NCBI GenBank assembly: GCA_024679065.1
Contig: JAGIQG010000023.1
Span: forward strand, 9,920,001 to 9,984,000
DNA from: Sphyrna mokarran
Lineage: Eukaryota
Reading direction: 5' to 3'
DNA length: 64,000 nucleotides
The notes under the pieces: model-generated
The model's database searches: none
What the model saw: only the letters and a program-made list of their open reading frames with translations
What the model was told of the DNA's origin: nothing
Position numbers and translations under genes: made by a program
In this document: positions 10,263 to 58,583 of the stretch, one piece after another
Layout: the number at the start of each line of letters is the position of its first letter
Position numbering within the stretch: the stretch's first letter is position 1

Positions 10263-10571
10263 CTAACAATTAACAGTAGCATAAACTGTCATTTGAGAAT
10301 CTTGCGGAGTATCGAGTGATGGAGCATTTTTGTTGGGTTGGCTTTGAACACTGATGGTACTGTAGGTGATTGTGTCCGTGTTGTCAACTGAGTGCCTTTC
10401 CACCTCACCACTCAGTGCTGGTGATTTCTTTTGAAACTGCACTGCTGTATAAGTGACTTTGCTTTCATTATTATTGAACTGGACATTTCCCTCGCTGTGC
10501 ACTCCTGCGGAGATACTTTGAGTGGCATTTGTGTTTGCATAAACAGTACTCTCTTCCGCTGCTTCCAGTTG
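10263..10571 (-). CDS. Gene A exon 7, cytoplasmic signalling exon with TVYANT, VTYTAV, ITYSTI and TVYATV
   Basis: Acceptor ttttttttatattgtag, phase 0, 102 aa to TAG. Two ITIM-type motifs, one C-terminal ITSM (TxYxxV) and one YxN site. Confidence 0.88.
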   Translation of the reverse strand, partial: QLEAAEESTVYANTNATQSISAGVHSEGNVQFNNNESKVTYTAVQFQKKSPALSGEVERHSVDNTDTITYSTISVQSQPNKNAPSLDTPQDSQMTVYATVNC

Positions 10572-25500: not shown

Positions 25501-28500
25501 AGCTTGATCTTATTTGTCTCTTAGGTGGGGACCATGAATTGGATTAATTTGGATTTTGAAGTTGTTTTTTGCAATAAGCAAGGAATGGATTTGGATTTGC
25601 CCGGTTTAATCTCAGCAGCGGCTTTGTAACTTCAAATAGAGTAAAAGGAGTGTTTTTATGAAGCAGTTTTTGATGCAAAACCTGGAGAGAATCCCACCAG
25701 CTCTGTCAGTGCGACCTAGACCAGAATTGTTAGATACTAGAAAAATAATTTGTTTATCGGGATACACCCATGTCCCGTAGCGTTATGTATCTGACTTGCT
25801 CGCCCCTCTAATACCAGTATGTCTTTCCTTAGAAAAGGGGACCAAAGCTGTTCACAATATTTCAGGTGGGGTCCAGTTAGTTCTTATACAATTTAAGCAA
25901 GACTTCTTTTTTGTTTTGTTATTCCATTCCCTTTGAAATAAAGGCCAACATTGCATTTGCCTTCCCTAGTACCCACTGAACTTGCTAGCTTTTTGTGACT
26001 TATATATGAAGCCCCCTGAATATGTACATGTGCAGCTTTCTGCAGTCTTTCTCCACTTAAATAATGCAGTTCCTTTATTCTCCTACCAAAGTGCATAACC
26101 TCACAGTTCCCTACATTATATTCCATTTGCAAGATTTTTTTCCTCTCACTCAACCTACTGACAAACCAAATAAAGTGAATTTCATCAGTTCCTGTAACTT
26201 GGAGTGACTGACAGAACTTAACCTGTGACTGACCAGTTTGGATAAACACTAGTTTAACCATTCAGGCACCAAATGGTTTTGTTTACAGCAACACTTACCA
26301 ATGCTGTTGACTTCTATCATATAACTGCAGTCATTCTTTGATCTGTTGATCAGTGACACTGTAACCATTTCACTGGATTTGTCTCCCTGGTTATTTGAGG
26401 CTGTGCAGTAATATTGATGACGTTGCTGGGTGAAGGATTGACAACGTAGATCCAGTTTATTGGTGTCAGAGATCTTTGAATCTTCAGATCGGGTCTTTTC
26501 GTACCACGTGTACTCAATGGGAATTGATCCCTGGACAGACTCACAGGAGACAGACACTGAGCCCCCAGAACACGAGGCACTTGGTGGTGATAGAAATTTA
26601 AGTTCAAGAACAGACACGGGTTCTGTGGGAAAGGAACAAACGTTCAGAAACTGACTGAATATCCAAACATCAAACATTTCATTTTTCACCACTCCTGTAT
26701 TCCTCCAGGGCCTGTTTGTTGGAATTTCACTAGTATATCTACCTCTCCATATTTCTCTACGCTCCTGCATCCTGAACCACTTCATTATGTCAGAATTTCA
26801 GGTTTCTGGTTGAAACGAGCAGCAATGATACTGAGAACATCTCAATGTGAAAATCAAGGTTAACAATATCTCTCAGTCACAGATAGCCAGTCTCCAATAC
26901 TACTTAATAGTCTAACTCTCAAATGTAATGTTGCCATAGTCCCAGAGTCCACTCAGCCCTTTGAGGGGGAGAGCTGACTGGTGGTGATGAAACCTGAGGA
27001 CCACCACACTCAGGCGAAGGGCAAGGTTGAAAAGTGTTGTCTTCATGGATAACTTCAGCCAGTACAGGAATTGAACCTGCGATGTTGGCATTGCTTTGCA
27101 TCACAAACCAACCATTCAGCCAACTGAGCTAACTGATGCTGACTCTCAAATGTGATCTAGTAATGTATTTTAATATGTTGATCTACAATACTGTCTAATC
27201 AGATCACTCTTCAATGTGAACTGATTGGAGAGAATTGTGGATCAATACATCCATATTATAGAATTAAATTATAGAATAAATTATAAATAAATTATATAAA
27301 TATAAATTATAAATTATAGAAAAATTGCCAGATATCAGTTACAGACAGTGTAGATTTGCACTTGGTTGGGGGAATAAGATGGGGGGGAGGTGTCGAAGGA
27401 GTCCTGCTCCTCCAGAACTACATATGGGCATTGGAATAAACTTCATAGAATCATAGAAACCCTACATCAAGTCTGTATCAACTACAATCTCACCAGCCCT
27501 ATCCCATAACCTCATGCATTTACCCTAGCCTAATCCCCCTGATATTAAGGGATAATTCAGCATAACCAATCTACCTAACCCATCTTTGGACTGTGAGAAG
27601 AAAAGGAGTCCTGGAAGAAATCCATGCAGATATGGGAAGATTGTATGCAAACTCCACACAGACGGTGACCCAAGATTGCAATTGAACCTGGGAGTTCCTG
27701 GCACTGTGAGGCAGCAGTGTTAACCATTGTCACCTACTACATGAGAAATTCCCCACTGCTTTCAGCATCCCAGTCTCCCAAACCCTGGAAAACATAGCCC
27801 ACAACTATTAGATTCAAATGGATCCCAAAATGGGAAAGATGGAGTCATAGTTAGATGTAGTAGTCATTAATCTGTCTCCACAGAGGAGATACTCAGACAA
27901 CTTGAACCTGTACTATAAACAGGGCCTAGTTTTAAGGTTGATAAAATTGGATATCCGAAATTAAAGAATTGGGCATATTAAAATCAATCACAGTCAAACC
28001 ACGGGCAGGCCAATTGTACAATATACAAACATGTCTGGGCCTGTTCATCAATCACCCATTATACAGTTGTGAACAATGTGTGTGGGAGGCCTGTCACTAC
28101 ATCACAGGCTATCGACTGCCGCCTCAATGATCACTCTTTCCATCAAAGACTTCTGGGGCAAGGTCTGGCTGAACACAGTTTTCTCTGCCCTCTGATGCGA
28201 CAGTGAAGGAATGGTGAGATATTCCCAAGTCAGGATGATGTATATTTGGAAGGGAATTTGCACATGGTGGTGCTCCCATGTATCTGCAGCTCTTATCCTT
28301 CAAGGTGGGAGAGATTGTGCATTTAGAGGCTGCTGTATATCATCTGTCTATTAGTTTTAGCCTAATGCAAACATTTGATTATATGATATTTAACAATGTT
28401 CAGATACAGAAATTTGTGCTAGCATCAGAATGAATGTTAACACCAAACCCTGTAATTCTTGGTGATATGAGTCTGTTCCATTGCACAAGGGAGCCAATCA

Positions 28501-31500
28501 AACATGTTAAGCTTTGTCAAGTGATACTATTCTTAAAATTTACTGGGAAGTTAACTCTTGCTTTGATTACTTTGATTATTTGCAGATATTAATTTTAGTG
28601 ATGTGTAATGCAGTTGATAGAATCCCTGCAGTGAACAAGGAGGCTATTCGGCCCACCAACAATAATCCAATCCAGGCCCTATCCCTGTAACCCACACAAT
28701 TGACTCTGATTAAGGGGCGATTTAGAATGTCCAACTTACCTAACCTGCATATCTGTGGACTGTGGGAGGAAACTGGAGTACCCAGAGGAAACCCACGCAG
28801 ACATGGGGAGAACGTGCAAACTCCACACAGTCACCCAAGGTCGGAATTGAACTTGGGTTTCTGGTGCTGTGAGGCAGCAGTGCTAACCACTGTGTTACTG
28901 TGTCTCCCATAGACAAAGAGAGAGAGAGAGAGAGAGACAGAGAGAGGGGGGTATGGTAAACATCCCACATGACATTTGGTCCAATGCCCTAGAGTTAAAG
29001 GAATTGTTAATCTGAACACAGTTGAAGTCCTTGGTCAGAAAGTTGGACAGGCCACAGGTTGGGTTTGTGTCACATGAGTCGGATTACCCAAACTCTGCCC
29101 TCTAGTGGTGAGAGTTTGCATTGCCGCATAGCCTCAGGATATCAGAGCTGTCAATGTTTCCTCGCAGATAAAACATAGAGCAGACATTTCAGTGGAGAGT
29201 AATAAAGAAAATCACTCAGAAACGTACCATCAATTATTTGTAGTTTTACAGAAAATAATTCATCGGGTCCAGATCTATCAATTCCACAGCTGTACCAACT
29301 TGCATCGCTTGACTGAAGATTCTCCATAGTAACCACAAATTTTCCTTGTGAATTGTTATCTGTGATTGACATTCTTCCTTGCCGTCCACCTGGATCACTT
29401 GTTCTGACTAAATATGAGCAGAGATGATTTGAACCTTTGCACCAATATTTCATGTTTTCCCTGAATTTCCCTGCGTCATAGTGACAATTTATTGTGATCG
29501 TTCTTCCCAAAATTCCTGTTATTTTCTTTTCTGCCTGCAATGCACCTGAAACTGAAGAGACAATATTTCAGAAATTGAACTAGAAGTAGCTGCTTAAGAC
29601 AAACAGATCCATTTTAATAGAAATTCCCACTGTGTACCGAGGGAATACTTCACCACATCTTCAAATGCAGTGAAATTCCTTCAAGTTTTTGATCTAAGAA
29701 AATATTGCAACTTCTCACAGCCTCAGGATGCGACAGAGCATTTCACAGCCAATGATTCACTTCTGTAACCTTTGGGGTATTTTAACTTTCTTGATCCGAT
29801 GGTAGCAATGGATATTGAGAGAGAAAGGAGAACCTTGAAATCAGTGTTGTATCACATACTGTGAAGTTTAACTTCATTGCATGTGTGAGATGTCACTGAC
29901 TGATTGACTGTCATCGCTTCCATATGGGTGGGAACATTCTGGAACAGAGCACAGGACCAAATCGGTCTCTATTCATCCCGCAGAGTGTGGAATGTGGTTG
30001 AGTTGCAGAAGGCCCGGGGTTAGGAGTGGATTTGGATTCTGGTTGGATGTGGGACTGGAGGCCTCAGAGTTGGGGCAGTGATGAATGTCTTTGGGAGAAT
30101 CGATGGGTTTTGTGGTGGGCAGGGGAGGGTGTTGAAGAATGAAGGCCAACTGCTTGGATTGTGATATTGTTGGCTTCATGGGTAAGTTGGGGTAGATCGG
30201 GAGTGTCGATATATAATATATATATATATGGGATTTCTGATTGCATTGGAGTTGCCCAGGCAATCGCAGTAGATTGTGAATGCATGTGGCTGAGGCATAA
30301 AATAAAAGCCCATGGAATTGGAGGAAATGTGTTAGCATCAATTGAAGACTGACTTTTCAAAGGAATTGGAATAAGTGTGTCTAATTCGGAGTGGAGGTAC
30401 CACAGGAAATAGGTCTTGGCCAGTAATCATTTATTATTTACATTAATGACCTGGAGGAGGGAACAGAATGTATTGTTTGCAAATTTGCTGATGATATGAA
30501 GACAGGTGGAAAGGCAGATTGTGATGAGGATATTGCGATTCTGCAACAGAATATAGATAGATTGAGTGACTGGGCAAAATCTAGCAAATGAATTTTAATG
30601 TGGGCTGGTGTTGAGGTCATGCATTTCAGTAGGAGGAATCAAAAGGCAAGTTATTACCTAAATTGTGAGAGACTGCAGGTGAGTGAAATAAAAGTTTTTA
30701 AATGTTATTTATTAGTGTCACAAGTAGGCTTACATTAACACCGCAATGTGAAAATCCTGTAACCATCACACTCTGGCCCCATTCACGTACACTGAGGGAG
30801 AATTGAGCATAGTCACTGCATGTAACCAGCACATCTTTCAGATTGTGGGAGAATCATAGAAACCCTACAGTGCAGAAGGAGGTCATTTACCCCATCGAGT
30901 CTGTACAGGCAAAAGTTACATCCTAATCCCTCTAACATGCACATCCCAGGACATCACGGCACAATTTTGCATGGCCAAAGAGCCTAACCTGCATATCTTT
31001 GAACTGTGGGGGGAATCCAGGGCACTCTAAGGAAACCCACGCAGACACAGGGAGAATTTGCAAACTCCACACAGACAGTGACTCAAGCCAGGAATCGAGC
31101 CCAGGTCCCTGGCACTGTGATGCAGCAGTGCTAACCACGATGTCACTGTGACTTGGGTGTTTGAGTACATGAATTACAAAAGCTAACAAGCAAGTCCAAT
31201 GAATACTTAAGAAGGCAAACAGCATTTTGGTATTTGTTGCAAACAGGTTGGAGTTCAAACATAGGAGGTTTTGCTGTAATTGTACAGAATAGTAATGCAT
31301 ACAATTTTGGTCCCTTTACCTTTAAAAAGATATAGTAACATTGGAGGCAGTTCAAAGGAGATTCACTAAGTTAATTCATGGGATGAGAGGGTTGCCCATC
31401 AAGAGAGATTAAAGAGTCTGGCTCTGTATTCCTCGGAGTTTAGAAGAGTGAAAAATGAACTTATTCAAACATATAAGATCCTAAGGGGGCTTGACAGGAT

Positions 31501-34500
31501 GGATGGTCAGATGTTTTTATGAATTGGAGAGACTAGAACAGGGGGACATAGCTACAAAATAAAAACTGAAGTGCATAGAAATTTCTTCTTAAAGAGGTGG
31601 TAAATCTCTAGATTCTTTTGTCCCAAAACGATAATTGAGGCTCGGTCATTTGAAGTATTCAAAGAAGAGCTCAATGAGTATGAGTATGATAGATGAAGAA
31701 GTAGATGGCTATGGGAAATGGCACAGAAAAGAAGTTGATGGAGGCATTGATCAGCCATGATTGCATTGAATGGCAGGGCAGGCTTGAAGGGTCTGGGGGC
31801 TTCTATTTGTAGTGTTTTTTTTTAAATCCCTAAACTAATCCCAGTTGACTCTTTTGGCCTATAGCCATACCCATCTAACTATCTAAATACCTTTTAAAAG
31901 ACAAAATTGTAGCTGCCTTTATTACTACCTCTGGCAGTTTGTTCCAGTCATTCATCATCCTCTGTGTGAAAAAATTGCCCCTTTGGACACTTTTGTATCT
32001 GTCCTCTCTCAACTTAAACCTATGCCTTCTAGTTTTAAATTCCCCTGCTTTGGGAAAAGATACTGACTCTCTATCTTGTCTATGCCCATCGTTATTTTAT
32101 AGGCGTCTATAAGGTCACCCCTCAGCCTCCTACACTCCTGAGAAAAAAGTCCCATTCTGTTCAGCATCGCCTTATAGTTCAATTCATCAAGTCCCAGTAG
32201 CATTCTAATAAATCTTTTCTGCATTCTTTCTAGTTTAATAATATTGTTTCTATATTAGGGTGACCAGAATTGCACACAGTATTCTAAGTGTGGCCTTACC
32301 AATGTCTTGTACAAATTCAACAAGGTGTCCCAACTCCTGTATTCAATGTTTTGACTGATGAAACCAAGCATGTCAAATGCCTTCTTCACCACTCTGTCCA
32401 CCTGTGACTCAAGGAGCTATGAACATGTATCCCTAGATCTCTTGGGAAGAGTGTAACTCTTCCCAACACTCTACTACTAACTGAGTAAGTCTTGCCTGGT
32501 TCAATCTACCAAAATGCATTACCTCACATTTGTCTAAATTAAACTCCATCTGCCATTTGTCAGAGCCCTGGCCCAATTGATCGAGATCCCGCTGCAATTG
32601 GAGATAACTTTCCTCACTATCCACCATGCCACTAATCTTAGTGTCATCTGCAAACTTACTAACCATGCCCCTTATATTGCCATCCAAATCACTAATTTAA
32701 TGACAAATAACAGTAGGTCCAACATTGATCCCTGAGACACACCACTAGGCACAGGCCTCCAGTTTGATAAATAACCCTCTACAATCACCTTCTGACTTCT
32801 GTCAAGAAGCCAATTTTGTATCCATTTAGATACCTCACTCTGGATCCATGAGATTTAAATTTCTGCAACAACCTACCATGGTGGTATCTTGTCAAAGGTT
32901 TTGCTAAATCCATGCAGACAACATTAACTGCACTGCTCTCATCTAACTTCTTGGTTACCCCTTCAAAAAATTCAATAAAATTTGTGAGACATGATTTTCC
33001 ATTCACAAAGCTATGCTGACTTTCCCTAATCAGTCCTTGATTTCTAAATGCCTGTAGGTCTTGTCCCTCAAAATACCTTCCAACAATTTACCCAGCACAG
33101 ATATGAGGCTAACAGGCCTGTAATTCTCAGGCTTTTCGTTGCAACCTTTTTTAAACAAAGGCACAACATTTGCCATTCTCCAATCTTCAGGCACTTCACT
33201 TGTGACTATCCATGATTCAAATATCTTGGTTAGGGGATCTGCAATTTCCTCCCTAGCCCCCAACAATGCCCTTCTCAGGCACTACAGATTTATCTATCTT
33301 GATGCACTTTAAAACTTCCAGCATCTCCTTCTATCTTCTCAGTTCATATCCCTCTATTTCCTTCCTATTCACATATCCATTCAGATACCTCTAATATGTT
33401 GCTAATCTGCTTGTTTCCACAATGTCCTCTGGCAGCACTTTCCAGATACCTATCACCTTCTGCATGAAAAACTTCCCTGCAATTTTACTTAAACTTTCCC
33501 CCTCTCACCTTGAACCTATGCTCCCTGGTAATTGACATTTCCTCGTTTGGAAAAAGCCTCCACCTTGCCTGTGTCCCTCATAATTTTGTAGATCTCTATC
33601 AGGGTTCCCCTCAGCCTCCATCTTTCCAGTGAAAATAATCTGCATTTATTCAATCTCTCCTCATAAAAAACACCCTTAAGATCAGGCAACATCCTGGCGA
33701 AACTTTATTGCATTCTCTCTAAAGCTTCCGCGTCCTTCTGATAATGTGGTGACCAGTTCTGGAAGAGGAGCAGCCTCAAGAGGATGAAGGGACTTGAACC
33801 GTTATCAGACGAATGACTCTGCTGCGTGAGGAACTTTCCAGGTGGGGGAATATTTTACACTGAAATGGTGAATTTAAAACAAGGGAATGAGACAGAGAGA
33901 AGAAAAGAAAATGAGAAGAGTAGTTCTGTTCAGAAAAAGGAAGTATTAAAAAGAGGAAGATTGTTAACGGACAGATGCACGTCAGTTGAATGTGCAGAAG
34001 CACGTAAAATACTCTGCACAAATTGGTAAACCAAAGGTGTTAATTTTATTTGGAATTTTGATTAAATAGAAGAGTTATTAAATAGAGTCAAGATCTGGAG
34101 TCTTCTGAGAGTCTAACATTACTGGATAGAACGTTTATTTATCAGAAGTGCTAGCATTGATCAAAAATTCCACTGCAGTCTTATTTTAAAAGATTAACAT
34201 AGAGTAAGATTGAAACATCAAGGGAGAATTGTTTAATCTAAATGAGTGAGGAAAAAAAATCATCACACATTGGAAGGGAAATATAGATCAACAATCTACC
34301 AGTGTGCTATAAAGTCTTATTTTAAATAGAGCACTTTCAACAGCAGAAGCAATTGTAAATTTGTGACATGTTCCGTTTGAAGATTATTCACAGTCTAGTT
34401 TTCAATATCATTTATATTAGACATCACTTTTTACAGATTAAAGCAGATTATTGGTGTTTAGTAAGTCCTTATCTAGCTTTTTAAATAACTAAATATTTTC

Positions 34501-34775
34501 CTGTTTGCCAATCACAGTTCATAATAAAGTTAGCTGTATATGAACAAACATGTCTGTGTTACAATAGTACAGTTGAAAGGGAAACAAGACTTCACACAGA
34601 TATCATCCATTTATTCCTGCCCAGCTTCTTGTGCCTTTACAAGTCTCCAAGTATTGAAACATTTCTGTGATATAACCTGTAGTTGCAGGTTAAACTAACA
34701 CTGATTACCTAGACTAAGCAGCTCTGGCTTTTACTCACCTGGCAGAGAACAAATGACCAGAATTAAAATCCACAT
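10263..34775 (-). CDS. Gene A: CD300/pIgR-like (MDIR-like) inhibitory Ig-superfamily receptor, 7 exons, 409 aa; join(34775-34739,29551-29228,26622-26299,21480-21387,19277-19189,13008-12956,10571-10263)
   Basis: All six introns are GT-AG with compatible phases (1,1,1,2,1,0). Exon lengths 37+324+324+94+89+53+309=1230 nt, open to TAG. Product is leader-IgV-IgC2-stalk-TM-tail with tyrosine motifs. Confidence 0.88.
10750..10975. mobile_element. Penelope-like terminal repeat in inverted (hairpin) arrangement with decayed hammerhead cores
   Basis: AAAGTCCAACAGGTT...AACCTGTTGGACTTT arms; TTGAAGA-AGGAGC-AAT-GCTCC-AAAA is a mutated CTGATGA...GAAA core; terminus shared with 56050-56093 and 20500-20540. 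Confidence 0.65.
12465..12812 (+). mobile_element. tRNA-derived SINE (second family, LINE-derived tail)
   Basis: GGTGGCACAATGG...GGGTTCGGATC head; about 350 bp shared with the copies at 19635 and 56098. Confidence 0.8.
12956..13008 (-). CDS. Gene A exon 6, juxtamembrane cytoplasmic exon (DTNGNEFHRKDKTLNDNR)
   Basis: Acceptor cttttcag, donor CGG|GTAAGA. 53 nt supplies exactly the phase 1->0 change needed between exons 5 and 7. Confidence 0.75.
14567..14860 (+). mobile_element. HE1-like V-SINE
   Basis: A/B boxes, V core, tail. Confidence 0.85.
14870..15990 (-). mobile_element. Possible highly decayed L1/Tx1-like LINE remnant
   Basis: Minus-strand text resembling a C-terminal C..C...H.FW.C....FW knuckle near 15330-15420 and a coiled-coil-like stretch near 15780-15950; heavily broken. 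Confidence 0.25.
16510..16915 (+). mobile_element. CR1 LINE 3' fragment
   Basis: SYEERLRDLRLFSLERRRLRGNLIETYK...FFTQRVV; (GTTCTAT)n tail. Confidence 0.88.
17690..18170. repeat. Low-complexity tract: GAT/GAG-rich, short (GTTGAACCGAAA)n tandem and C-rich run
   Basis: Imperfect 12-mer repeats at 17833-17875; poly-C/CCA stretch at 18070-18170. Confidence 0.6.
19189..19277 (-). CDS. Gene A exon 5, transmembrane segment (VIYIVLAVLGAILIMLTVSLLLYLKKVNK)
   Basis: Uncharged 24-aa hydrophobic helix followed by basic stop-transfer residues. Acceptor taccacag, donor AAG|GTGAGT, phase 2-1. Confidence 0.9.
19355..20110 (-). mobile_element. Deu-domain SINE (SacSINE1/AmnSINE1-like), interrupted by a younger SINE at 19635-19982 (+)
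   Basis: GCAGCCAATTTGCGCACAGCA...ACCAGATAATCTG before the insertion and CACCTCTGACAGCACAGC after it; colinear with the copy at 44378-44810. Confidence 0.6.
20398..20540. mobile_element. Short Penelope-like inverted terminal repeat
   Basis: AGTAAGAAGTCTCATAACACCA ... TGGTGTTGTGAGACTTCTTACT arms; same family as 10750 and 55316. Confidence 0.7.
21387..21480 (-). CDS. Gene A exon 4, Ser/Thr/Asn-rich stalk (GPEYSCPDSSTVSTNTNIHHNENQNQTLRFT)
   Basis: Acceptor ttttaacag, donor AAG|GTAAAA, phase 1-2. The G-x-EYSC start is shared with the gene B stalk exon. Confidence 0.85.
22990..25168 (+). mobile_element. Rex1/Babar-type LINE, 5'-truncated and degenerate, with an unrelated insert near 23740-23930
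   Basis: KPW.N...AKRQY..KLE...WQGL, FNLSLQQSEVPICFKK, LLFINYSSAFNAI, KFADD; (AAATC)n tail at 25148-25168. Confidence 0.88.
25780..26160 (-). mobile_element. CR1 RT fragment
   Basis: QMEYNVGNCEVMHFGR motif. Confidence 0.75.
26299..26622 (-). CDS. Gene A exon 3, IgC2 domain of FcR-like (FCRL/PECAM-type) class
   Basis: EPVSVLEL...VSVSCESVQGSIPIEYTWY...QYYCTASNNQG...SEMVTV. The C-x4-GS-x-PI-x-Y-x-W and YYCxAxN motifs are typical of FCRL-type domains. Acceptor cccacag, donor G|GTAAGT, phase 1-1. Confidence 0.92.
26925..27135 (-). mobile_element. Short tRNA-derived SINE (third family); further copies at about 53275-53495 (+) and 46020-46135 (+, partial)
   Basis: TAGCTCAGTTGG...GGTTCAATTCC head on the minus strand; body matches 53275-53495. 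Confidence 0.75.
27444..27735 (-). mobile_element. HE1-like V-SINE
   Basis: Head, V core and tail on the minus strand. Confidence 0.8.
28616..28908 (-). mobile_element. HE1-like V-SINE with adjacent (AG)n microsatellite (28916-28946)
   Basis: Head, V core and tail on the minus strand; AG repeat visible. Confidence 0.85.
29094..29111 (-). promoter_or_regulatory. CTCF-binding consensus
   Basis: Minus strand reads CACCACTAGAGGGCAG, a near-perfect match to CCACYAGRKGGC, in apparently non-repeat intron sequence about 120 bp downstream of the gene A V exon. Confidence 0.5.
29228..29551 (-). CDS. Gene A exon 2, IgV domain of CD300/pIgR/TREM type
   Basis: VSGALQAEKKITGILGRTITINCHYD...KYWCKGSNHLC...GRMSITDN...FVVTMENLQSSDASWYSCGI...VKLQIID. 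Has the CxY, KYWC-x6-C extra disulfide and DxxWYxC motifs. Acceptor tctcttcag, donor G|GTACGT. Confidence 0.93.
30280..31810 (+). mobile_element. Degenerate CR1 ORF2 interrupted by V-SINE copies (30695-31147, -)
   Basis: KIKAHGIGG, YINDLEEG..KFADD, and C-terminal text resuming after the SINEs. Confidence 0.8.
31855..33760 (-). mobile_element. Degenerate CR1 ORF2 (31855-33330) plus a second CR1 3' fragment (33340-33760)
   Basis: VPEDWRMANVVPLFKKG, GKSCLTN, SKFADDTK, RRLRGDLI motifs in successive short ORFs. Confidence 0.88.
34739..34775 (-). CDS. Gene A exon 1, signal peptide MWILILVICSLP
   Basis: ATG, hydrophobic leader, donor CAG|GTGAGT, phase 1; joins in frame to VSGAL of the V exon. Confidence 0.85.
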
Positions 34776-41004: not shown

Positions 41005-42855
41005 CTACATACTGTTGCAATCCGAACTCATGTTACTACTGGACAAGTCATACCCCAGCTTGATAGATCCTAATTTTTATTTGATGTTTAGACACACGAA
41101 AGACAGCTACTGAACAGTCACAGGAGTCAGTTGATGTACTTTTAACCAAAGAATAAAATATTTATTAAACAAGAAAAGATGAACTATTTTGCACTACTCC
41201 TTCACTCCAACTTTACCTTGATTGATATGTACACATTCATAATGATAACACACATTACAAAACTATTCTTTAGCAAAACAAAATTATGATAACATCAGAC
41301 GTAAACAAATATAGGAAAACTCAATCTTAGTTATACCTGTGGGTTTTCCTGTCTTTTACTGTGAGAAAGGTCCATTCTTCCATCTCATGTCAATGCATAA
41401 CTTACTATTGAGAAACTAGTTTCCATTGAATGAATAAGTCAAATATTCAATTTCTTACAGAATATTATTCATGTGTTTGGGATATCCAAAGCTTAAAAAT
41501 TAATGCAAAATATATGACAAGAGAAAGGAAACAATAGTTACCTTGTGCAGATAGAAAGAGGGTAAACAGATTAATTATTCCCAAGAAGATGACAGAGTGA
41601 TACCAACTAAAAAGTTTTAGCCATCATTTTGGTTCTTGATTCTTACCAATTTGATCCATTTTATTATGTACAAATGATTTAAATTAATGTTCAAAGCTGG
41701 GTGAATAATAAATCTTTGATCAGGAGACAAAATTCCACCAATGTAGATGTGAGCTGGGAATCGTCATTTTTCCATATTGATCGCATTGGGATCATTGGAT
41801 TCACTAAGTGACTGGAAAAGAAAATATTTCATGCATCAGATTTAAAGATGACGGAGAAAAATGCGCCATGTTTCATGTCAATTCTGAACAGGATTTTGGA
41901 ACTGGCAGAAAATTGAGACGAAGCTTGTGAGGAACTGGAGCAACGTTATCTGAGGAACTGGAGCTGCTCCCACCAACGCCATCACCCATTGCATGTGTAC
42001 TGGCAAAAGGTGCCAGCTATGTCCCTCTTGGGAATGACTACCACCATTTTCTCAAAGAGAACTAATGCTTCCCTGCAGCTGTGGCACAAATGTCAGAAAA
42101 AAACACCACTGATGTGGTAGTTTAATTAAATATATTCCACATTATCCAGACAAGCTTCCTGGTAACTGTAGTATCACTGCCTGTGTCGGAGACATTTGGT
42201 GTTCGAGTGGATCAATTTTAGTCCCATATTCTGTTTTGAAAACAATTGTCTCTGGTGTACTATGGTGATGTGCTTTTTGTTTCATCCTTCCTATTTCCTT
42301 CCTTTCTTGTAGTGATTGCTTAATAACAATGAATTGCATCATATATGGGAGCAGGAGGTCAGCTTCGGCACCCAGAAACTATCCATTAATTGAAATTTCT
42401 TCCCTGAAGAACTCAGCAAGGGATGAGTTCCATTGTATGAAGGTGTTATTGCTATGGAATGATAACTAATGTTATTTAAAAAAAAATCTTGCAGTGAATG
42501 ATGATAACATTTGATTGGGTTCCAATTCCCCTGCATTTCTGTTTCCCACCACTAACCCCCACCCCACCTTGCAATTGTTTTCTCTCAAGAATTTGAAGTG
42601 TGGCTAATAAGCTGATGTGACAAATGTGAATTTCAGATTTCAGTGAATACTTTTGTGTTCTTTCTGGGCAGAATTTGAACTGTTAAGCTTTGCAAACTAG
42701 GTTATTTTGAAATACTTCAATGAGATGCTATCTGTGGAACAAAGCAGGCAGATTATATCTGAATATAACAACAAGAGCGGCCCATTCAACACCTTCAGGC
42801 TGTTCCACTATTCAATTAGATAGCAACTAAATTCTCAATTCCATTTACTCACTAT

Positions 42856-44810: not shown

Positions 44811-45798
44811 ATACACAAGTTGTAATTAAAGAGGTCAGTTATTCCAGAAAGTAAGAGTGATTTGGGTCCTCACTAGATTTTTTTCATAATGTATGAATAT
44901 TCACATGGCTAACTTCTAAAATTTGAAAAAGTGGACAACCTCTATTCAGAATGGCCAAACCTATATCTCTCTATGACCTGATTAAAAGGACCTTTTTGGC
45001 AGTATCAAAACCATTTCATCTTGTTATCTCTGAAGTGACCCTAAGGAATCCCAGTGAGCTGCATTGTCCAAATTCAAGGGGAACCATATAAAGACCATTC
45101 AAGCTTCTTAAGACAGACCTAAGACACTCTTCATCAGAGTCAAAGTGGAGAGATGGGAATCATAAAACACTGCCATTCCTCCCCCATCCATGCCCCCACT
45201 CCACCCATTCCCCCTTGGTGCTGGAAGTAGTAATATTACCTTGCGAGACTGCCATCATTCCATCTACCAAGCAGTAGTATCCCAGTAAAGCTTTTCTGTC
45301 TGGGCTTGACTACCAGGACCCATCTACACTGTATCTAGTGGAAAAAAATGTATCACTTCAGGGACAGCTGAGGATCAATCTTTGCTCTCAGATAGTCTAA
45401 AGATGGTGTTGGAAGAGCTGTCTCTGAATATTTTCGAGGTAGGGGTTGCTAGGTTCTTGGTAAGCAAAACAGGTGAAATGTTATTTGGGGCAGTTTGGAA
45501 TGTGGAGTTGAGAATACAGTCTGATTATCCATGATCTTATTGATGGTGGAGCAGGCTTGAGGGCGGAATGGCCAACTTCTGATTCTAATTTATATCTTTA
45601 TATGTATGCATATTCATATGAATAAGGAATCTACTTGATTTTCCTACTTGACATCAGTAATGACTGAAAACAAACTCATTATTGGCTGGAAAATATTTTG
45701 ATTCATGCTGACAACATGAATGGATTTATATAAATGAAGTTTTTCTTTACAATATCTGTGATCAATATCTTTGAAAGAATTGGTAGAGGTGGAACAAT

Positions 45799-48700
45799 TC
45801 AGGTGATGTTCATAGCACCTACCTTAGATTTTTCTGTATACCATGTGACGGTAACAGCACAAATCACCAAGAGAGTAAAGAGCCCCCAACAAATCAGATT
45901 CCAGGTAACGTAACTGAACAAAATGGTAGAAATACAAAGTCATTTGCAGGAAATGAGAATTCATCATGTTTGAAGCATTAAGCTGCTATTTTGCTATACA
46001 GGTTGAATTTATTCATAAGGCCATGCATTCTCAATCTTGTCCCTTGCCTAAGGTATGATGGTCTTCAGGTAAAATGACCACCAGTCAGCTCCCCTTCAAA
46101 GGGAGGTCATCTGAGACTATCATAGCTTTACCTTTAATCAAGATGAGTAATGATAACAGCATCATCTGAAGGAGACCAAACTGGAAACATTCACTTCTTC
46201 CTCTCATTTCCCAGCACCCTAAATTGCTCCTTCATTGGGAGGATTAGAACATCATGACCCAATTCCTGTCACCATTTCTATTCTGATAAATTCTGCTCTG
46301 AAGCAGTGAATTATTAGAAACAATTAAGCTAAAACTCGGTACCATTGATTCTCATTTGAAAAGCAATGCCAATAAAACAGCTACAATGGGAACCTTGTAC
46401 CTTTCACTGGTGAATGTAGATCCCGAAGATGTGGTTAATGTTACTGTTGATATGGTTTTAAAATCTTCACAAGAATATTCACGTCCTATTGAGACAGAGG
46501 GAATACATTTAGATTTATCCGATTCTCACCCAGTCAACTAAGAAAGCATTCTGCTCAAATAGAACCTCAGTATTTGGGAGGATGGATTTGGGTGTTTTAA
46601 CTATTTCCTTTCTGGTAGCAAGAAAATGACATGTACCAGAGACCCATTTTGCTGCTGATTTCTTATTCATCCCATATTTGAGAGTTGTTGGTATAACAAT
46701 AGTGGGTCTCTGTGCCGTAAGTTCCCCTTTCCGCCTCAGCTGTTTTCCTGGAGGATTTCAATCTGTCCTGTCCACCATACCATGATCTCATCACTGCATT
46801 ATGCCGGGGGGCCATATTTAAACTGCAGCCATGTGCGCACCTCAGTGAGTCCAATTGTCTGAAGACATTGGCCCTGTACTGCCGTGTGTACTGAACTCCA
46901 TTGCTGATGTTGGATTTGACAATGCAGGCACAGACACTCCCCTAGCCAGCCCTGCAAAACTACACCGTTCACATGAACCATGCCGGAGACTGATCCCAAC
47001 CTGAATGAAGACATTGCAAAGGGGGTGCGAGTGCATGATTGTTCCATGGCAAAGATTCATAAGGCGATTGTACCACTGGCCCATCATTCTATTGTTCTGG
47101 AAACTGCCTCCCTCAAAACATTTATTAATTTTGTAGTCTGTGCCTGAGGGGTAAAAAGTTCAGGAGCATTTGATGGCCCGTTCATGCCTCTGCATTCCTT
47201 GAGTGGGAAGATAAGCTAAAGGTCCGAGCATAAAATTGAAGTTTTAATCACAAGTAGGCTTACATTAACAATGCAATGGTAAACTAATGGGGCTGAAGGT
47301 AGATAAGTCCCCGGGACCGGGTGGAATGCATCCCAGGCTTCTGAAAGAAATGGCAAAGGTGATAGCAGATGTCTTTGTAATTATTTATCAAAATTCACTG
47401 GACTGCGGGGAAGTGCCGGAAGATTGGAAAACAGCTAATGTTATGCAGCTGTTTTTAAAAGGTAGCAGATAAAAGGCAGGGAATTATAGGCTAGTTAGTT
47501 TAACGTCTGTCGTTGGAAAAATGCTTGAATCGGTGATCAAAGAAGAAATAGCGAGGCACCTAGAAAAGAATGGTTTGATCAAGCAGACGCAACACGGATT
47601 CATTAAGGGGAAATCGTGTTTGATGAATTTATTGGATTTCTATGAGGATGTGACTATTGCGGTAGATAGAGGAGAACTGGTGGATGTGGTGTTTTTAGAT
47701 TTCCAAAAGCTGTTTGAGGAGATGCCTCACAAAATATTGCTGCAAAGGTTAGGATGCGAGGAGTTGGGGGTAAGGTATCAGCATGGATAGAGGATTAGTT
47801 GTTTAATAGGAAGCAGAGGGTAGGAATCAATGGGTGCTATTCTGGTTGGCAGTTGGTGACTAGTGGAGTGCTGCAGGGATCGGTGTTGGGGCCTCAACTG
47901 TTTACCATATACATAGATGATCTGGAGGAAGGGGCTGAGTGTAGGGTAACAAAATTTGCTGATGACACGAAGATAAGTGGAAAAGCAAATTGCGTGGAGG
48001 GTGTGGAAAGTCTGCAGAGAGATCTGGATAGGTTGAGTGAGTGGGCGAGGACTTGGCAGATGGAGTATAATGTTAGCAAGTGTGAGGTTATCCACTTTGG
48101 TAGAAGTAATATTAGGAGGGATTATTATTTAAAAGGCGAAAAGCTGCAGCATGCTACGGTGCAGAGGGACCTGGGGGTCTTTGTGCACGAATTGCAAAAA
48201 TACAGTCTGCAGGTGTAGCAGGTAATCAAGAAGGCAAATGGAATATTGACCTTTATATCTAGGGGGATAGAACATAAAAGTAGGGGGGTCTTGTTGCAAC
48301 TGTACAGTGTGCTGGTGAGGCTGCAGCTGGAGTACTGTGTGCAGTTTTGGTTGCCACATTTGCAGAAGGATATATTGGCCTTGGAGGGAGTGCAGAGAAG
48401 GTTCACGAGGCTGTATGCCAGAGATGAGAGGGTTAGCCTCTGAAGAGAGATTGAGTAGACTAGGTTTGTACTCATTGGAGTTTAGAAGGCTGAGGGAGGA
48501 TCTTATAGAGACAAATAAGATAATGAAGGGGATGGATAGGGTAGAGGTAGAGAGAATCCTCCTGCTTAGAAAAGATAACAGGACTAGAGGGCACTGCCTT
48601 AAAAGGGGGGGGGGAGGAGTTTAGATTGGAGTTGAGGAGGAATTTCTTCATTCAAAAGGTGATGAATCTTTGGAATTCTCTGCCCATTGAAGTGGTGGAG

Positions 48701-51700: not shown

Positions 51701-54700
51701 ACCAAGAACCTGGGTTCAATTGCTGGCTTGAGTCACTCTCTGTGCAGAGTCAGCATGTTCTCCCCATGTCTGCATGGGTTTCCTCTGGGTGGCCTGATTT
51801 CCTCCCACAGTCCAAAAGATGTGCTGGTTAGATGTATAGGCCATGCTAAATTCTCCCTCAGTTTACCCAAATGGGTGCTGGAGTGTGGAGACTAGGGGAT
51901 TTTCACAGTAGCTTCACTGTGCTGCTAATTTAAGCTTACTTGTGACATAATAAATGTAGTTTTAAACTTTAAACTCCCAGTGGAAATGGTGGGTGTTGGA
52001 TTTGGGAGCTGGGCTTCAGGAGTCAGGGGTGGCTTTAATTTATTCACACTTTAATCTCCATTGTCATGCTTTTCTCCTCATAACTAAAATGTTTCAGCCC
52101 AAGTTTTTCTTAAGTTTAATTCTTCCAGCTTAGACCTGAGAGGTTATATTTGCTAGGATTGTTTTTTAATCAAGCAATGTAAGCATCGTTGATAAGGTAA
52201 GAATCTGTCTCCCATGTCTAATTGCTTTTAAACTTGCTTGGCCATTTCAGAGGATATTTAAGTGGCAATCACATTGCTGTTGGTTTGAAGTCATGTGTCA
52301 GTCAGCCCAGGTAAAAATGACAGATCTCAAGAATAAAGAACAGCTAAAATTACAGCACAGGAACAGGCCTTTCGGGCCTCCAAGCCTGCACCGACTGACT
52401 TAACTAAAACCCCCTACCTTCCGGGGACCATATCCCTCTATTCCCATTCTATTTGTCTGTTACAGTCACCATCATATTTGCTTCCACTACCTTTTTTTGG
52501 CAATGGGTTCCAGGCACCCACCACCCTCTGTGTAAAAGATTTGCCTTGTACATCTCCTTTAAACCTTGCCCCTCACAACTTAAACCTCTGCCCCCTTGTA
52601 ATTGATTCTTCCACCTTGGGAAAAAAAACTTCTGATTATCCACTCTGTCCATGCCCCTCATGACCTTGCCAACTGCTGATAGGTCCCCCTTAACCTTCAT
52701 TGTTCCAGTGAGAACAAACAAAGTTTCTTCAACCTCTCCTCATAGCTATTTCTTACCCTAAAGGGCATTAGGGAACAATTGTTGACATCTTCATGGTTTT
52801 AATTACTGATCATGAAATCTTACACTGCAGAAGAAGGCCATTCAGCCCATCGAGTCTGTACTGACCACAATCCCATCCAGGCTCTGTGCCCATAACATTA
52901 CGCATTTACCCTAGCTAGTTCCCCTGACACAAAGGGGGAATTTAACATGGTAATCCACTTAACCAACACATCATTGGACTGTGGGAGGAAACTGGAGCAC
53001 CCACACAGGAAACCCACACAGGCACGGGAAGAATGTGCATGCTCCACACAGACTGTGGCCCAAGAGAGGAATTGAACCTTGATCCCTGGGGCTGCGAGGC
53101 AGCAGTGCCACCATGCCGCCCATTTGGTAATATTAGCTTTCAATTCCCAATTTATTAATTAATTGAATTCAATTCCATCAGCTACCATGGTGGGATTTGA
53201 ACCCATGCTCCTTGAGCATTAGCTGGGCCTCTGGGTTGCTGGACCAGTGGCATTAGCAAAATGCACTTTCACTCAGGGCAGGCTCAGTTGGCTGAACAAC
53301 AGATTTGTGGTGCAAGGTGATGCCAGCAGCGCAGGTCCAATTCCCAGACCAGCTGAGGTTATTCATGAAGGCCCCACCTTCTCAGCATTGTCCCTCCCCT
53401 GAGATGTGGTGACCCTCAAATTAAATCACCAGTGGTCAGCTCTCCCCATTAAAGGGGGGAGTAGCCTCTGGTCATCTGGGACCACAACGACTTTAACTTT
53501 GCACAATCTCCTAAATGGGCATTTAGATCTATGCAGCTCAGCAATTAAAAACTATTTTCATTTATTGGGATGATTGAGTTGTAATATTTATTCATATTCT
53601 GGGGATATTTTTTGACCCTGTCATTTTCCATGAAAAATTAAGATCAAATATTTTTCAGGTTGATAATTAAAATTAACTAGCAACTGGTATAAATGGACAT
53701 TAATCATAAAAATCATTAACCTCAATGTTAGTTTAAAGTAACACTTACCAATGTTGCTTTGTATCACATAACTGCAATTCCCAGTTGTATTTAAAACCAA
53801 TACATTAACCATTTCACTGTATTTTTCTCCCTGGTTATTTGAGGCTGTGCAGTAATATTGATGATGTCGCTGTGTGAAGGATTGACAATGTAGATCCAGT
53901 TTATTGGTGTCAGAGATCTTTGAATCTTCAGGCGGGGTCTTTTCATACCATGTGTACTGAATGGGAAGTGATCCCTGGACAGACTCACAGGAGACGGACA
54001 CTGAGCCCCCAGAACATGAGGCATTTGATCGTGTTAAAAATCTAAGTTCAGGATTTGTGGTTTCTGTGGGGAAAAAAACATTCAGAAACTGACTGACATT
54101 CTAAAAATCAAACACTCTGTGAATTTCATCCCTTCAGCATCTCAGCCAGGGGCAGCCATGTTGGAATCTCACCAGCACATCCACATCTCCACGGGCAAAT
54201 GCTTAATCGGGATTTGTATGTGGGAAGTGCTGGGCAAAAAGTTAGAAATGCCAGGAAAGTCAAGTTTGTGCTGAATTTAACAGCAAAACCAGATTAGAAC
54301 TCTCCCAGAATTGAGAGACTGGCTGGAGTTTGAGTAGAAAAGTCTGTCGTGTAAAATTTGGAATTGGTAGGAGTGTGGGCCCAGAGGACAGTAGCGAGGA
54401 GGGAATCAAGAAGGCTTTATTGGTTAGGGCAGAATTGGCCAATCAAGGAATGTTGGGGGGGGAGGTGCAGTGATGGTAAAATGCATTTGCCTGGGAGCCA
54501 AGATGAAGCTTCTCTGTGCCTTCGGAACCACAATCCATGCTGGAAAAGCTGCTGGACCTATCAAATCCCATTGCCATGAACAGATTGGATCCAGAGTTTT
54601 GTGTTGTACTGCTGTGTGTGCTGAACTCCATCACTGATACCATAGTTGGCAGCTCAGATGCAGATGTTCCTCTAGCCCATCCTGCAAGACTGCACCATTC

Positions 54701-57700
54701 GCTTGAATCATGGGACAGACTAACCTGAATGTGACTCATGTCATGCTGAGGTTATGTTAGTGAGGGCAGTAAATTCACCATGTGGGGATGATCCCAATGG
54801 CAGGGATGATGATAAGATGCAAATGGATTAAAATTATGTTCTCGCCATTTGACTAATCAAGACTAATTTTTGACCATTCTGCCATATTTTCTGTTCACGA
54901 TTTCAAGCGCGCCCATTACCAACTCCACACTGTTCCTCTTCTGGTCACTGCTGTGTTGTTGCAGCCCGAACTGGATAACTGTCAGCCAATCAGATGGAAC
55001 TCTCCAAGACAGGACTCCCTCTGGAGCAAGGGCCGAACCTCTTGCCCAATAACAATCAACACACATTTGAGTGTTAAATGACATCATGCTATTCCAAAAC
55101 TTCAGACATCTGGATCCTGTTAAATTCTGTGGATTGATTCTATTTTGTTATATTTGAGGGCATTACACCATCGCTAACAGCTAGCTCTTAACTATTTGTC
55201 ATTTCGTTTTAATCTAAAAGCAAACATCTGACAGTGTGACAAATTGATCAGTCCATGAATTGGATTTGTATGAGGCAGATTTCCCCAACTCTGACCTCTG
55301 GGGGGAGTTAGTGGCCTGACAACACCAGGTTTAAGTCTAACCAATTTATTTGATAGTAAACTCACAAGCTTTCGGGATTTGTCCCTTCGTCAGGTGAAGG
55401 AGAGTTCTGGCCTTAGACAGAGCATATAGCAGCATAGACAGTTTACAGATTACTGATTAGAATGCGAGTCTTTGCCACTAACCTGCTATTCAAATCTTAA
55501 AGATGCCAACAATGTGAGTGGAAAAAGCATTAAGCACAGGTTAAAGAGATGTGTATTGTCTCCAGACTGTACAGTAAGTGAGGTTTTGCAAACCCAGGCA
55601 AGTCATGGGGATTACAGATAGTGCACCATGAACCCAAGATCCCTGTTGAGACCATCCTCATGTGTGTGGAACTTGGCTATCAGACTGTTCCAAGTTCCGC
55701 ACACGAGGACAGTCTCAACAGGGATCTTGAATTCATGTCGCACAATCTGTCACACCTATGACTTGCCTGGGTTTGCAAAACCTCACTTACTGTTCTGTCT
55801 GGAGACAATACACATCTCTTTAACCTGTGCTTAATGCTTTTTCCACTCACGTTGTTGGCATCTTTAAGACTTGAATAGTAGGTTAGTTGTAAAGACTCAT
55901 ATTCTAATCAGTAATCTGTAAACTGTCTATGCTGCTATGTGCTCTGTCTGAGGCCAGAACTCTCCTTCACCTGATGAAGGGATGAATGCCAAAAGCTTGT
56001 GAGATAACTATCAAATAAATTGGTTGGGCTTAAACCTGATGTTGTCAGACTTCTTACTGTGTTTACCCCAGTCCAATGCCGGCATCTCCACATTGGGAGC
56101 TAGTGGCACATAATATTGTCACTGGTCTAGTAATCCAGCAAACCCAGGATCATGCTCTGGGGACCTGAGTTCAAATCCTGCCAGTAGCGGATGAATTTGA
56201 GTTCACTAAAAATCTTGAATTGAAAGTCTAACAATGACCATGGAACAATGATAAAAACCCAACTGGTTCACTAATGTCCTTTAGAGAAGGAAATCTGCTG
56301 TCCCACTGTCCTTATCTTGTCTGGCCTATGTGTGACTCCAGATCCAGAGCAATGTGGTTGAATCTTAAAATGCCCTCATGGGTGGGCAATAAATGCTGGC
56401 CTTGTCAATGATGCCCACATCCAATGAACAAATGAAAAAACAATCTGCCCGAGTCTGCGTTGCAGTGGACCCTCGGGATATCACAGTTGTCAATTCCACA
56501 GCTGTACCATCCTGCATCTCCTGAGCGAAGATCCTTCATAGTGACAACAAAGTCTCCTTGTGTCTTGTTATCTGTGATTGATATTCTGCCATTTTGCCGA
56601 TTTGTTGCTGCTATAACAACACACTGGCGAGTCCAGCCCTGACACCAATATTTCACATTTGACCGGTACCACACATCATAGTGACAATCTATTGTGATTG
56701 CTCTTCCCACAATTCCTCTTACTTCCTTTTTTGCCCACAATGCACCTGAAACTGAGGAGACAACATTTCAAAAATTTCCTCCCAGAGAAAAGCATGGCCT
56801 GAATTTTTTGCTTGTAGTGTGTATGTGTGTGTGTGCACTCAGCGAGTCTGGATACGTGTATGAAACATCAGCCCCAAAGCACAGTTTCACACTGGCTAAA
56901 TTGATACCTATGGCCTCCAGCTATCCTCCAAGGCCACCGATCCCGTGCACCATCACCGAAGTTGGCAATCTTCACCTCCTGAAATCCCCAAATCCATCCA
57001 AGATCTGAAAATCCCTCCTGCCAGGATTTAATGTGTGTGTCACATCCCATCCCTACTGCCTACACCATCTATCAGGTCAGATCAAGGATCTCTTTGCTGC
57101 TGTCATCTCCTCGGGGTTGCTTACCAACTAACTGCAAGTGTGACCTGTCAATTAGGTTTGTTTCTCGGTCTGGAACCTCTTGATGATGGGGGAATGAATG
57201 GGAGAAGAGCCACCGTGAAGCTGTCTTCAGGGTATTGTTGACTTGTGAAGAATATCAGTGTTAAAATGATACCGAGAGTGTCAGGGCAGCACGATCTCAC
57301 ACACACACAGCTCGGCCCCCAGACACATTTTTTTTTTAATATGAACCCTGACCTTTCATTCTGCCCTGCATTGGGGTTGCAGCTAAAATGTAAAGGTCAC
57401 CTGACCAATTGGGCCGCCTGCCAATTGTAAAGACAGACAGACAACTTAAAGTTCTGGATAATTGGTGTTTAATGAATTTAAATTGAATTTTGGATGGCTG
57501 CAGGTGCATTTCCAACTTGCTCATGTGCCTGGCGACTGAGATATTGGGTGAAGGCATATTGCCATAGGGGTCTGATTTTACCCACATTCGGGTAGGGCAC
57601 GTGTCTGATCTTTATACATAAAATTCTGGCCACTGATAGGAGATTTCAGCAGAGAGTAATAAAGATAACCACTGAGAATAACGTACCGTTAGATATTTGT

Positions 57701-57998
57701 AGTTCTACGTCATACAATGGATCGAGGCCGGGTGTTTCAATTCCACAGCTGTACCATCCTGCATCTCCTGAGCAAAGATCCTTCATAGTGACAACAAAGT
57801 CTCCTTGTGTCTTGTTATCTGTGATTGATATTCTGCCATTTTGCCGATTTGTTGCTGCTACAACAACACACTGGCGAGTCCAGCCCTGACACCAATATTT
57901 CACATTTGATCGGTACCACACATCATAGTGACAATCTATTGTGATCGCTCTTCCCACAATTCCTCTTACTTCCTTTTTTGCCCACAATGCACCTGAAA
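45799..57998 (-). CDS. Gene B: paralogous CD300/pIgR-like receptor, activating-type TM and short tail, 5'-incomplete; join(57998-57687,54063-53749,46485-46401,45913-45823...)
   Basis: Four exons homologous to gene A exons 2-5, with intact GT-AG sites and the same internal phases (1,1,2). No leader exon found in the window. The 3' end is either read-through (KSKVGAMNIT*, stop at 45799) or a spliced mini-exon. Confidence 0.8.
45823..45913 (-). CDS. Gene B transmembrane exon (YVTWNLICWGLFTLLVICAVTVTWYTEKSK)
   Basis: Acceptor ttttgttcag in phase 2 matching the stalk exon; hydrophobic helix; donor AAG|GTAGGT, phase 0. Confidence 0.82.
46401..46485 (-). CDS. Gene B stalk exon (GREYSCEDFKTISTVTLTTSSGSTFTSE)
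   Basis: Acceptor tctcaatag, donor AAG|GTACAA, phase 1-2. EYSC motif as in gene A; Thr/Ser-rich. Confidence 0.82.
47270..48888 (+). mobile_element. CR1 LINE, 5'-truncated, RT through 3' tail; V-SINE fragment follows (48888-49088, -)
   Basis: KSPGPGGMHPRLLKE, QHGFIKGKSCL, GVLQGSVLGPQLF, KFADDTK; stops and frameshifts. Confidence 0.92.
49610..50275 (+). mobile_element. CR1 3' fragment with an internal inverted duplication
   Basis: SYEERLDKL..FSLE text; 50150-50225 is the reverse complement of about 49882-49955. Confidence 0.8.
51668..51970 (+). mobile_element. HE1-like V-SINE, alternative tail
   Basis: A/B boxes, V core; tail as at 7396-7680. Confidence 0.85.
52325..52745 (-). mobile_element. 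CR1 3' fragment
   Basis: VMRGMDRVD...QRVVGAWN text plus CR1 tail. Confidence 0.8.
52815..53120 (-). mobile_element. HE1-like V-SINE
   Basis: Head, V core and tail on the minus strand. Confidence 0.8.
53749..54063 (-). CDS. Gene B IgC2 (FCRL-type) exon
   Basis: ETTNPELRFL...VSVSCESVQGSLPIQYTWY...QYYCTASNNQG...NCSYVIQSNI. 315 nt, phase 1-1, acceptor ccccacag, donor G|GTAAGT. Confidence 0.92.
55316..56093. mobile_element. Penelope-like element 3' ends fused as a palindrome (arms 55316-55676 and 55690-56048)
   Basis: Arms are reverse complements around a 13-nt spacer. Each encodes a GIY-YIG-type C-terminus (LIAKFHTHEDGLNRDLGFMVHYL*) and has a hammerhead-like motif. Confidence 0.85.
55362..55397 (-). 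ncRNA. Minimal type I hammerhead ribozyme motif (Penelope type)
   Basis: UCAC-CUGACGA-A-GGGA-CAAA-UCCC-GAAA-GC-UU-GUGA: stem I UCAC/GUGA, intact CUGAnGA and GAAA cores, stem II GGGA/UCCC, palindromic AAGCUU stem III. Confidence 0.65.
56098..56440 (+). mobile_element. tRNA-derived SINE (second family)
   Basis: Matches 12465-12812 and 19635-19982. Confidence 0.8.
56490..56751 (-). pseudogene. Truncated tandem duplicate of the gene B V exon (lacks G strand and splice donor)
   Basis: 56490-56776 matches 57737-58023 with only 4 substitutions counted. Homology stops right after WYSCGI; the frame then runs into unrelated/SINE sequence and stops at 56405. Confidence 0.88.
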
Positions 57999-58583
57999 CT
58001 GAGGAGACAACATTTCAAAAATTGAACAGAGAACAAATGTTTCATTCAAACACAAACATTCCAATGAATTAAATTCCACCTGGCTTGTGATGAAAATAAA
58101 CATTAATATAAACATTTATTACAGTCTTAGTGTGTCAAAAGCATTTCTGTCAATGATTAATTTTTTAAAATATTTATTGTATTTTCCTGACCCACTGACA
58201 GGGCATGGGCGAACAGGGATGGAGGGCAGGGTCTGGAAATTGGGATTCTGCCTTACACTGTGGGACTTCACTCCAGAGTGTGATTGTGAGATATCATCAA
58301 GAGGTTTCAGACCAAGAAACAAAACTACCTGACAGGTCCAACTTGCAGTTAGTTGGTGAGCAGCCCACAGGAGATGACAGGACCAAAGAGGTCCTTGATC
58401 TGACCTGAAAGATGGTGTAGGTAGTAGGGATAGGATGTGACACACACCTTAAATCCTGGCAGGAGGGGATTTTCAGATCTTGGATGGGTTTGAGGTTTCA
58501 GGAAATGAAGATTGCTAACCTCAGTGATGATGCATGGATTGGTGGCCTTGGAAGATGGCCGGAAGCCTTAAGTATCAATTTAG
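56895..58583. repeat. Inverted repeat pair (56895-57187 and 58293-58583) flanking the gene B V exon
   Basis: For example CCATCCAAGATCTGAAAATCCC...CCTGCCAGGATTTAA at about 56994-57031 versus TTAAATCCTGGCAGG...GGGATTTTCAGATCTTGGATGG at about 58449-58487; roughly 80-85% identity by eye over about 290 bp. Confidence 0.85.
57687..57998 (-). CDS. Gene B IgV exon (CD300/pIgR type)
   Basis: VSGALWAKKEVRGIVGRAITIDCHYDVWYRSNVKYWCQGWTRQC...DAGWYSCGIETPGLDPLYDVELQISN. 312 nt, phase 1-1, acceptor tctcctcag, donor G|GTACGT. Confidence 0.92.

Follow-up and report, generated by a model that had tools for sequence, protein, structure and literature searches.

Short-tailed activating receptors pair a basic residue in their transmembrane (TM) segment with an acidic TM residue of the adaptor through which they signal (PMC4536121). 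Our window, the whole 64,000-nucleotide stretch of Sphyrna mokarran DNA that was analysed, contains two tandem minus-strand genes, A and B (Table 1), and the TM exon of gene B has a Cys codon where the basic residue of the activating class would be expected. Is this Cys real, how did it arise, and what would it do to the receptor? Both genes resemble the MDIRs (modular domain immune-type receptors), multigene families akin to CD300/TREM/pIgR that comprise activating as well as inhibitory members (PMC3031540); the same cluster organisation is found here, gene A being an inhibitory form in tandem with gene B.

Table 1. Features of genes A and B in the window.
Feature	Position	Strand	Basis
Gene A, inhibitory twin	10263..34775	-	Same modules, uncharged TM, tyrosine-motif tail
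Gene A leader	34775	-	
Gene A V	29551-29228	-	
Gene A C2	~26622-26299	-	
Gene A stalk	~21480-21387	-	
Gene A TM, uncharged	~19290-19190	-	
Gene A tail, tyrosine motifs	~10571-10263	-	
Gene B V-set Ig exon (CD300/pIgR-like, extra C-x6-C pair)	57687..57998	-	Pfam V-set E 2.6e-10; AG/GT, open frame
Shortened V-exon duplicate	56490..56751	-	Acceptor intact, no donor where homology ends; likely skipped
Gene B C2-type Ig exon	53749..54063	-	Open frame, splice sites; up to 90% to Mustelus MDIR-like, 61-63% to MDIR5/MDIR3
Gene B stalk exon, rich in Ser/Thr, phase 1 to 2	46401..46485	-	Homologous to gene A stalk exon; frame
Gene B TM exon, activating-type (W-x3-R-W class), Arg to Cys	45823..45913	-	Splice sites, frame, homology
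Gene B TGT (Cys) codon	45889..45891	-	CGT (Arg) in orthologous contigs X5, X7, X8; TGT in X11
Gene B predicted last coding exon, 15-residue tail without tyrosine, stop	41764..41811	-	In frame after TM exon

The TM exon of gene B is 91 nt long, with the pyrimidine-tract acceptor ...ttttgttcag before 45913 and the donor gtaggt after 45823, and it translates as YVTWNLICWGLFTLLVICAVTVTWYTEKSK. Its first codon is split at the junction (phase 2), with AG supplied by the stalk exon to give AGT (Ser), and this splice phase confirms the string S-Y-V-T-W-N-L-I-C-W-G that the preliminary description had read. The TM exon of gene A also starts in phase 2 after its homologous stalk exon, and the activating and inhibitory TM exons can therefore be exchanged without loss of frame. 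The gene B exon is not a chance reading frame, since it matches the TM of a homologue from Mustelus asterias (77% across 31 aa, E 3.6e-9); a Pfam search gave no model matching it. Within the exon the Cys stands at residue 8, where the hydrophobic span begins, and no other charge precedes exon residue 27. The second basic TM residue present in 19/51 relatives is absent from gene B, and the Glu toward the C-end of its TM is a change from Gly; an acidic residue occurs at that end in 15/51 relatives.

The V, C2, stalk, TM and predicted tail exons of gene B have AG acceptors in all five cases and four internal GT donors, with an open frame, and its V domain is 57.9% identical to that of MDIR5 (E 9e-32). 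The last exon was chosen by its resemblance, judged by eye, to the tail of the homologue P0006, and an AATAAA lies about 600 nt beyond it; alternative tail exons near 44.3 kb were dropped, the exon at 41811 matching homologue tails instead. When conserved columns are defined as those at least 90% conserved in 244 (V) and 236 (C2) homologous domains, none is broken in gene B (V 0/28, C2 0/30), the means in relatives being 0.84 and 1.05. Ig domains so free of decay fit continued use as well as recent loss. No leader exon of gene B was found within the window, the sole leader found there belonging to gene A; relatives often have more Ig units upstream, and the gene B leader may therefore lie beyond base 64000. 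By every sequence feature tested gene B belongs to the MDIRs, and it is of the activating type, but it has Cys in place of the Arg that the W-x3-R-W motif requires of a functional activating MDIR. Gene A carries four tyrosine motifs in its last exon and appears to be an intact inhibitory MDIR.

Several other features surround the V exon of gene B. Its shortened duplicate is a repeat with 99% identity over 287 nt (4 differences in 262 nt) and no GT at its end; it sits between the V and C2 exons, close to two inverted repeats in 55306-58472 (359 nt, 90%; 180 nt, 89%), and could act as a splicing trap yielding a short secreted form. At 57774 on the minus strand, within the V exon, there is a second Arg to Cys change, CGC>TGC, giving D-L-C-S-G against D-L-R-S-G in the duplicate; Cys occupies this column in 1/244 homologous domains and, on the extracellular side, would be without a pairing partner. 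Just upstream of the V exon, at a place where one could look for the leader, the minus strand has an ORF of 450 aa without stops (59883-61235) that is reverse-transcriptase-like and, by appearance, a CR1-type LINE.

The closest described counterparts are the MDIRs of the clearnose skate, among which MDIR5 (ABC86800.1) is a short-tailed form with an Arg-bearing TM and MDIR3 (ABC86797.1) an ITIM form. Gene B shares with them the V and C2 modules (58-63% identical), the short tail, the TM class (W-K-V-G-R-W in MDIR5) and the uncharged, tyrosine-tailed twin, here gene A, but differs from them in having Cys at the Arg site. The preliminary description saw in this locus an NLIR/FcRγ module joined to a CD300-type ectodomain in sharks. 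An Arg-bearing TM on such an ectodomain is no novelty in cartilaginous fish: it is the standard activating MDIR form, already known from MDIR5. The activating CD300/TREM receptors of mammals are like gene B in their V domain type with an extra Cys pair and in their paired-receptor logic, and unlike it in being without the MDIR C2 module. They carry a central TM Lys or Glu.

To what residue the Cys site owes its origin can be judged from the family. A homologue search with the gene B C2 domain gave 132 proteins, and 120 of these were examined; among them, those with names all come from sharks and rays, including skate MDIR5 (61%) and MDIR3 (63%) and a Mustelus asterias protein (90%), and both TM classes, Arg-bearing and uncharged, are present among the 120. 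A pattern that left the site free recovered 42 TMs in 40 of these 120 proteins, with Arg in 42/42. A profile search raised the count to 43/43, and the addition of further proteins brought it to 51/51 TMs from 49 proteins with 35 distinct cores, among the matches listed. This last count leaves out two low-complexity matches (P0129, P0130) and three isoforms, and represents annotated models sharing ancestry, not 51 independent events. A further search for homologues, with the TM region as query, yielded a single protein, again with Arg. Judged by these homologous TMs, skate MDIR5 among them, Arg is ancestral at the Cys site of gene B, as had been proposed; no Cys or other non-basic residue is conserved there in relatives, Cys occurring in 0/51 family TMs.

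The family TM motif is (Y/F)-x-x-W-x-V-x-R-W, with the core W-x3-R-W. Tyr or Phe stands seven residues before the Arg in 37/43 TMs (Tyr in 28/43); across the 51 TMs, the residue three before it is Lys in 19, Asp in 14, Ser in 8, Asn in 6, Thr in 3 and Glu in 1, and the residue two before it is Val in 47, Met in 3 and Ile in 1. The ancestral string NLIR suggested in the preliminary description is at odds with these counts, as Leu is found in 0/51, Asn in 6/51 and the Thr of Y-T-x-x-N in 0/43; the earlier motif was W-N-V-x-R. The Leu is peculiar to the gene B copy, position 45897 differing in every contig compared from other copies. Many RefSeq models of the MDIR-like family fuse neighbouring genes, so that further Ig domains come after an internal TM or leader, and these fused models (P0006, P0009, P0010, P0012, P0023, P0041 and others) go under names such as pIgR-like, FcRL5-like or titin-like instead of MDIR.

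Of twelve sequencing runs, none labelled as RNA, seven (X1, X2, X5, X6, X7, X8 and X11) were compared as contigs, in which second alleles may be hidden. Run X1 contains 0.93 of the window's words and may be the window's own source sample. One of its contigs spans 45534-46700 with 0 differences over 1167 nt, at a depth of 15.7; the neighbouring contig has a depth of 14.9, and an assembly slip is highly unlikely, since the X1 contig is identical to the window and its depth is like that of its neighbour. The TGT codon, with the same base in X1 and at the position first described, is a real observation. A second, short X1 contig represents a paralogous TM, with depth 64.1 and G at plus-strand 45891 (Arg-type). 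Its depth, about four times that of gene B, suggests redundancy, although depth gives no firm copy number.

In each of the six other runs, one low-depth contig aligning through the flanking intron was called as the orthologue, and one paralogue contig was found besides it. The orthologue contigs are about 93-94% identical over the flanks, as measured for the three compared on a long stretch. Their first codon base is C (Arg-type) in X2, X5, X6, X7 and X8 (5/6) and T in X11. For X2 and X6 the differences listed give this first base only; the full CGT is readable in X5, X7 and X8, the X7 contig being weak with a depth of 2, and bears out the single CpG transition CGT>TGT put forward earlier. In X11 only the paralogue (40.7 of a depth of 51) differs at 45891, and its orthologue is thus TGT; this is one contig of depth 10.3, which may be one allele of a heterozygote. 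All seven paralogue contigs have C at the first codon base, four of them with a full CGC. Cys is therefore present in 2/7 orthologues (2/6 studies) and 0/7 paralogue contigs. At sites where Ile, Gly and Val occur in the window, P0006 and P0122, the X11 orthologue has the Ser, Ala and Ile of X5, X7 and X8. X11 thus groups with the Arg carriers, and two separate CpG transitions, one in the window lineage and one in X11, are the most probable history; a single gain followed by reversal, or a long-standing polymorphism, could also account for it. The orthologous contigs X2 and X6 differ from the window at the TM-exon donor +3 (window 45820), where the coding strand has GTT instead of GTA; the donor of the exon may be weaker in those relatives.

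We consider it somewhat probable that gene B has exchanged the family-invariant TM Arg for Cys by a CpG transition and encodes a surface receptor that likely does not recruit an ITAM adaptor and signals weakly or not at all. By analogy with the Arg-TM receptors of mammals and Xenopus, the MDIR Arg would pair with an acidic residue in an adaptor of the FcRγ/CD3ζ type, and its replacement by Cys would uncouple signalling, while ligand binding may remain. Uncoupling is predicted because no other charge precedes residue 27 and there is no second basic residue. The loss of adaptor coupling that the preliminary description put forward can thus soundly be predicted, with the Arg lost, no other TM charge and no tyrosine motif in the tail. 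The Cys would have persisted in a redundant copy under relaxed constraint, in a cluster that keeps Arg paralogues, and would have arisen twice owing to the mutable CpG codon; any decoy effect would be a by-product.

How readily could drift account for this? The TM exon is no better conserved than the sequence around it: it differs from X8 at 7 of 76 listable bases, 6/7 of them residue-changing, against about 6% in the rest of the contig (exon versus flank, Fisher p 0.31). This exon pattern has P 0.18 under no constraint and P 0.009 under halved rates, with small numbers and mostly conservative changes. The CpG observed/expected ratio of the window is 0.26, and 1/35 listed intron differences is a CpG transition, which is too few to yield a local CpG rate, so assumed rates were used. 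If tree lengths are assumed to be 0.08-0.16 and CpG multipliers 3-10, the probability that a single CpG is hit twice under neutrality is 0.03-0.48. Selection, for a decoy included, is therefore not required, and a redundant copy under relaxed constraint suffices as explanation. Counting against this explanation, the equally easy change CGT>CAT (His) was seen in none of the contigs compared.

It is unlikely, in our assessment, that gene B is a young pseudogene in a decaying locus, or is expressed without the TM exon, in either of which cases the Cys would have no effect. Signs of such decay may be seen in the shortened V copy with its live acceptor, the 359-nt inverted repeat at 55306-56058, the LINE-like ORF, the second rare Arg to Cys change in the V exon and the lack of a leader within the window. 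Against them stand the five exons that splice in frame at canonical sites and the conserved Ig columns, none of which is broken, and the missing leader may be accounted for by the further upstream Ig units of relatives.

Selection for a decoy is a rather improbable alternative, in which two lineages each favoured a ligand-binding, non-signalling form that dampens or competes with the Arg paralogues and gene A. In its favour, the ectodomain is intact and NxxR-type receptors often reach the surface without FcRγ (PMC6557307). The same substitution is found in two lineages at one orthologous locus and in 0/51 TMs elsewhere (p ~0.01 with the window's own data set included). This p value is inflated, however, the site having been picked by the window itself; without the window's data set, the comparison is 1/6 orthologues against 0/51 family TMs (p 0.11). 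The recurrence is also explained by the CpG hotspot, and X11, as a single contig, may represent one heterozygote allele.

Quite doubtful, too, is the idea that a Cys near the outer membrane face forms a disulphide homodimer, or a link to the juxtamembrane Cys of an adaptor, that keeps or alters signalling. The location of the Cys at the start of the hydrophobic span is suitable, since the dimer Cys of FcRγ/CD3ζ is located at about that membrane level, the outer start of the TM span. However, the gene B tail is without a signalling motif, leaving a homodimer nothing to signal with, and none of the 51 family TMs has Cys at the site. An assembly or sequencing error is highly improbable: the whole finding does rest on a single base, read from contigs, but X1 has the same base in a contig without differences and X11 carries it too.

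The uncoupling that we favour depends on how the W-x3-R-W segment works. The preliminary description associated the NLIR-type module with LRC receptors in mammals. The NxxR TM of LRC receptors (LILRA, FcαRI, GPVI, OSCAR, NCR1) is not confined to them and is used also by the FCRL and SLAM families of Xenopus (PMC6557307, PMC2413239 and PMC4536121). The Arg of LRC receptors is essential for FcRγ association and their surface arrival is usually FcRγ-independent (PMC6557307), and the FcRγ dependence of Xenopus FCRL proteins with an NxxR TM varies (PMC2413239). The MDIR-like family is like the LRC NxxR TM in having its Arg at the outer TM end, a Tyr or Phe seven residues before it in most members and a short tail; Asn three residues before the Arg site, as in the LRC receptors, is found in gene B and 6/51 relatives. 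It is unlike the LRC form in that the Asn is not conserved, there is no D-Y-T start (Thr 0/43) and the flanking Trp residues are near-invariant; an acid at the C-end is present in 15/51. Gene B itself has no Arg, and has S-Y-V instead of D-Y-T.

When the TM profile was run against 1.84 billion representatives, no receptor from outside the elasmobranchs was found at E 0.001, the 30-column profile being short for remote homology; the 16 matches comprised 14 elasmobranch MDIR-like proteins and 2 low-complexity ORFs (P0129, P0130). The corresponding search of the PDB gave no relevant chain, with one irrelevant match at E 1.4. From the likenesses above, the W-x3-R-W TM may work like the LRC NxxR anchor. 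FcRγ was not found in the shark sequences of 2014 (PMC4016189), a negative that is weak because the survey also missed pIgR-like genes such as these. Our literature search, which covered mainly the main text of openly available papers, gave no report of a shark FcRγ; nor, in a scope without the original MDIR description (Cannon et al. 2006), did it yield a description of the TM motif of MDIRs or of forms lacking the Arg.

In our analysis, gene B is a real, probably recurrent Arg-loss variant in a known paired-receptor family, and most likely a signalling-weak copy under relaxed selection. Taken alone, the loss of one charge in an immune receptor cluster of the birth-and-death kind is of modest significance. 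A natural Arg/Cys pair at one orthologous locus, in two lineages, nevertheless provides a ready test of MDIR signalling via an ITAM adaptor. That Arg is invariant in 51 TMs of sharks and rays implies an adaptor of this kind, despite the survey without a shark FcRγ (PMC4016189), and the identity of the MDIR partner bears on when activating-receptor modules arose. We regard as improbable the most far-reaching interpretation, that sharks repeatedly and adaptively made one activating MDIR a non-signalling, possibly disulphide-linked decoy by Arg to Cys changes, and that the W-x3-R-W anchor is a deep homologue of the LRC NxxR anchor. If the deep homology were true, the activating module and its FcRγ/CD3ζ-type partner would date to the jawed-vertebrate ancestor.
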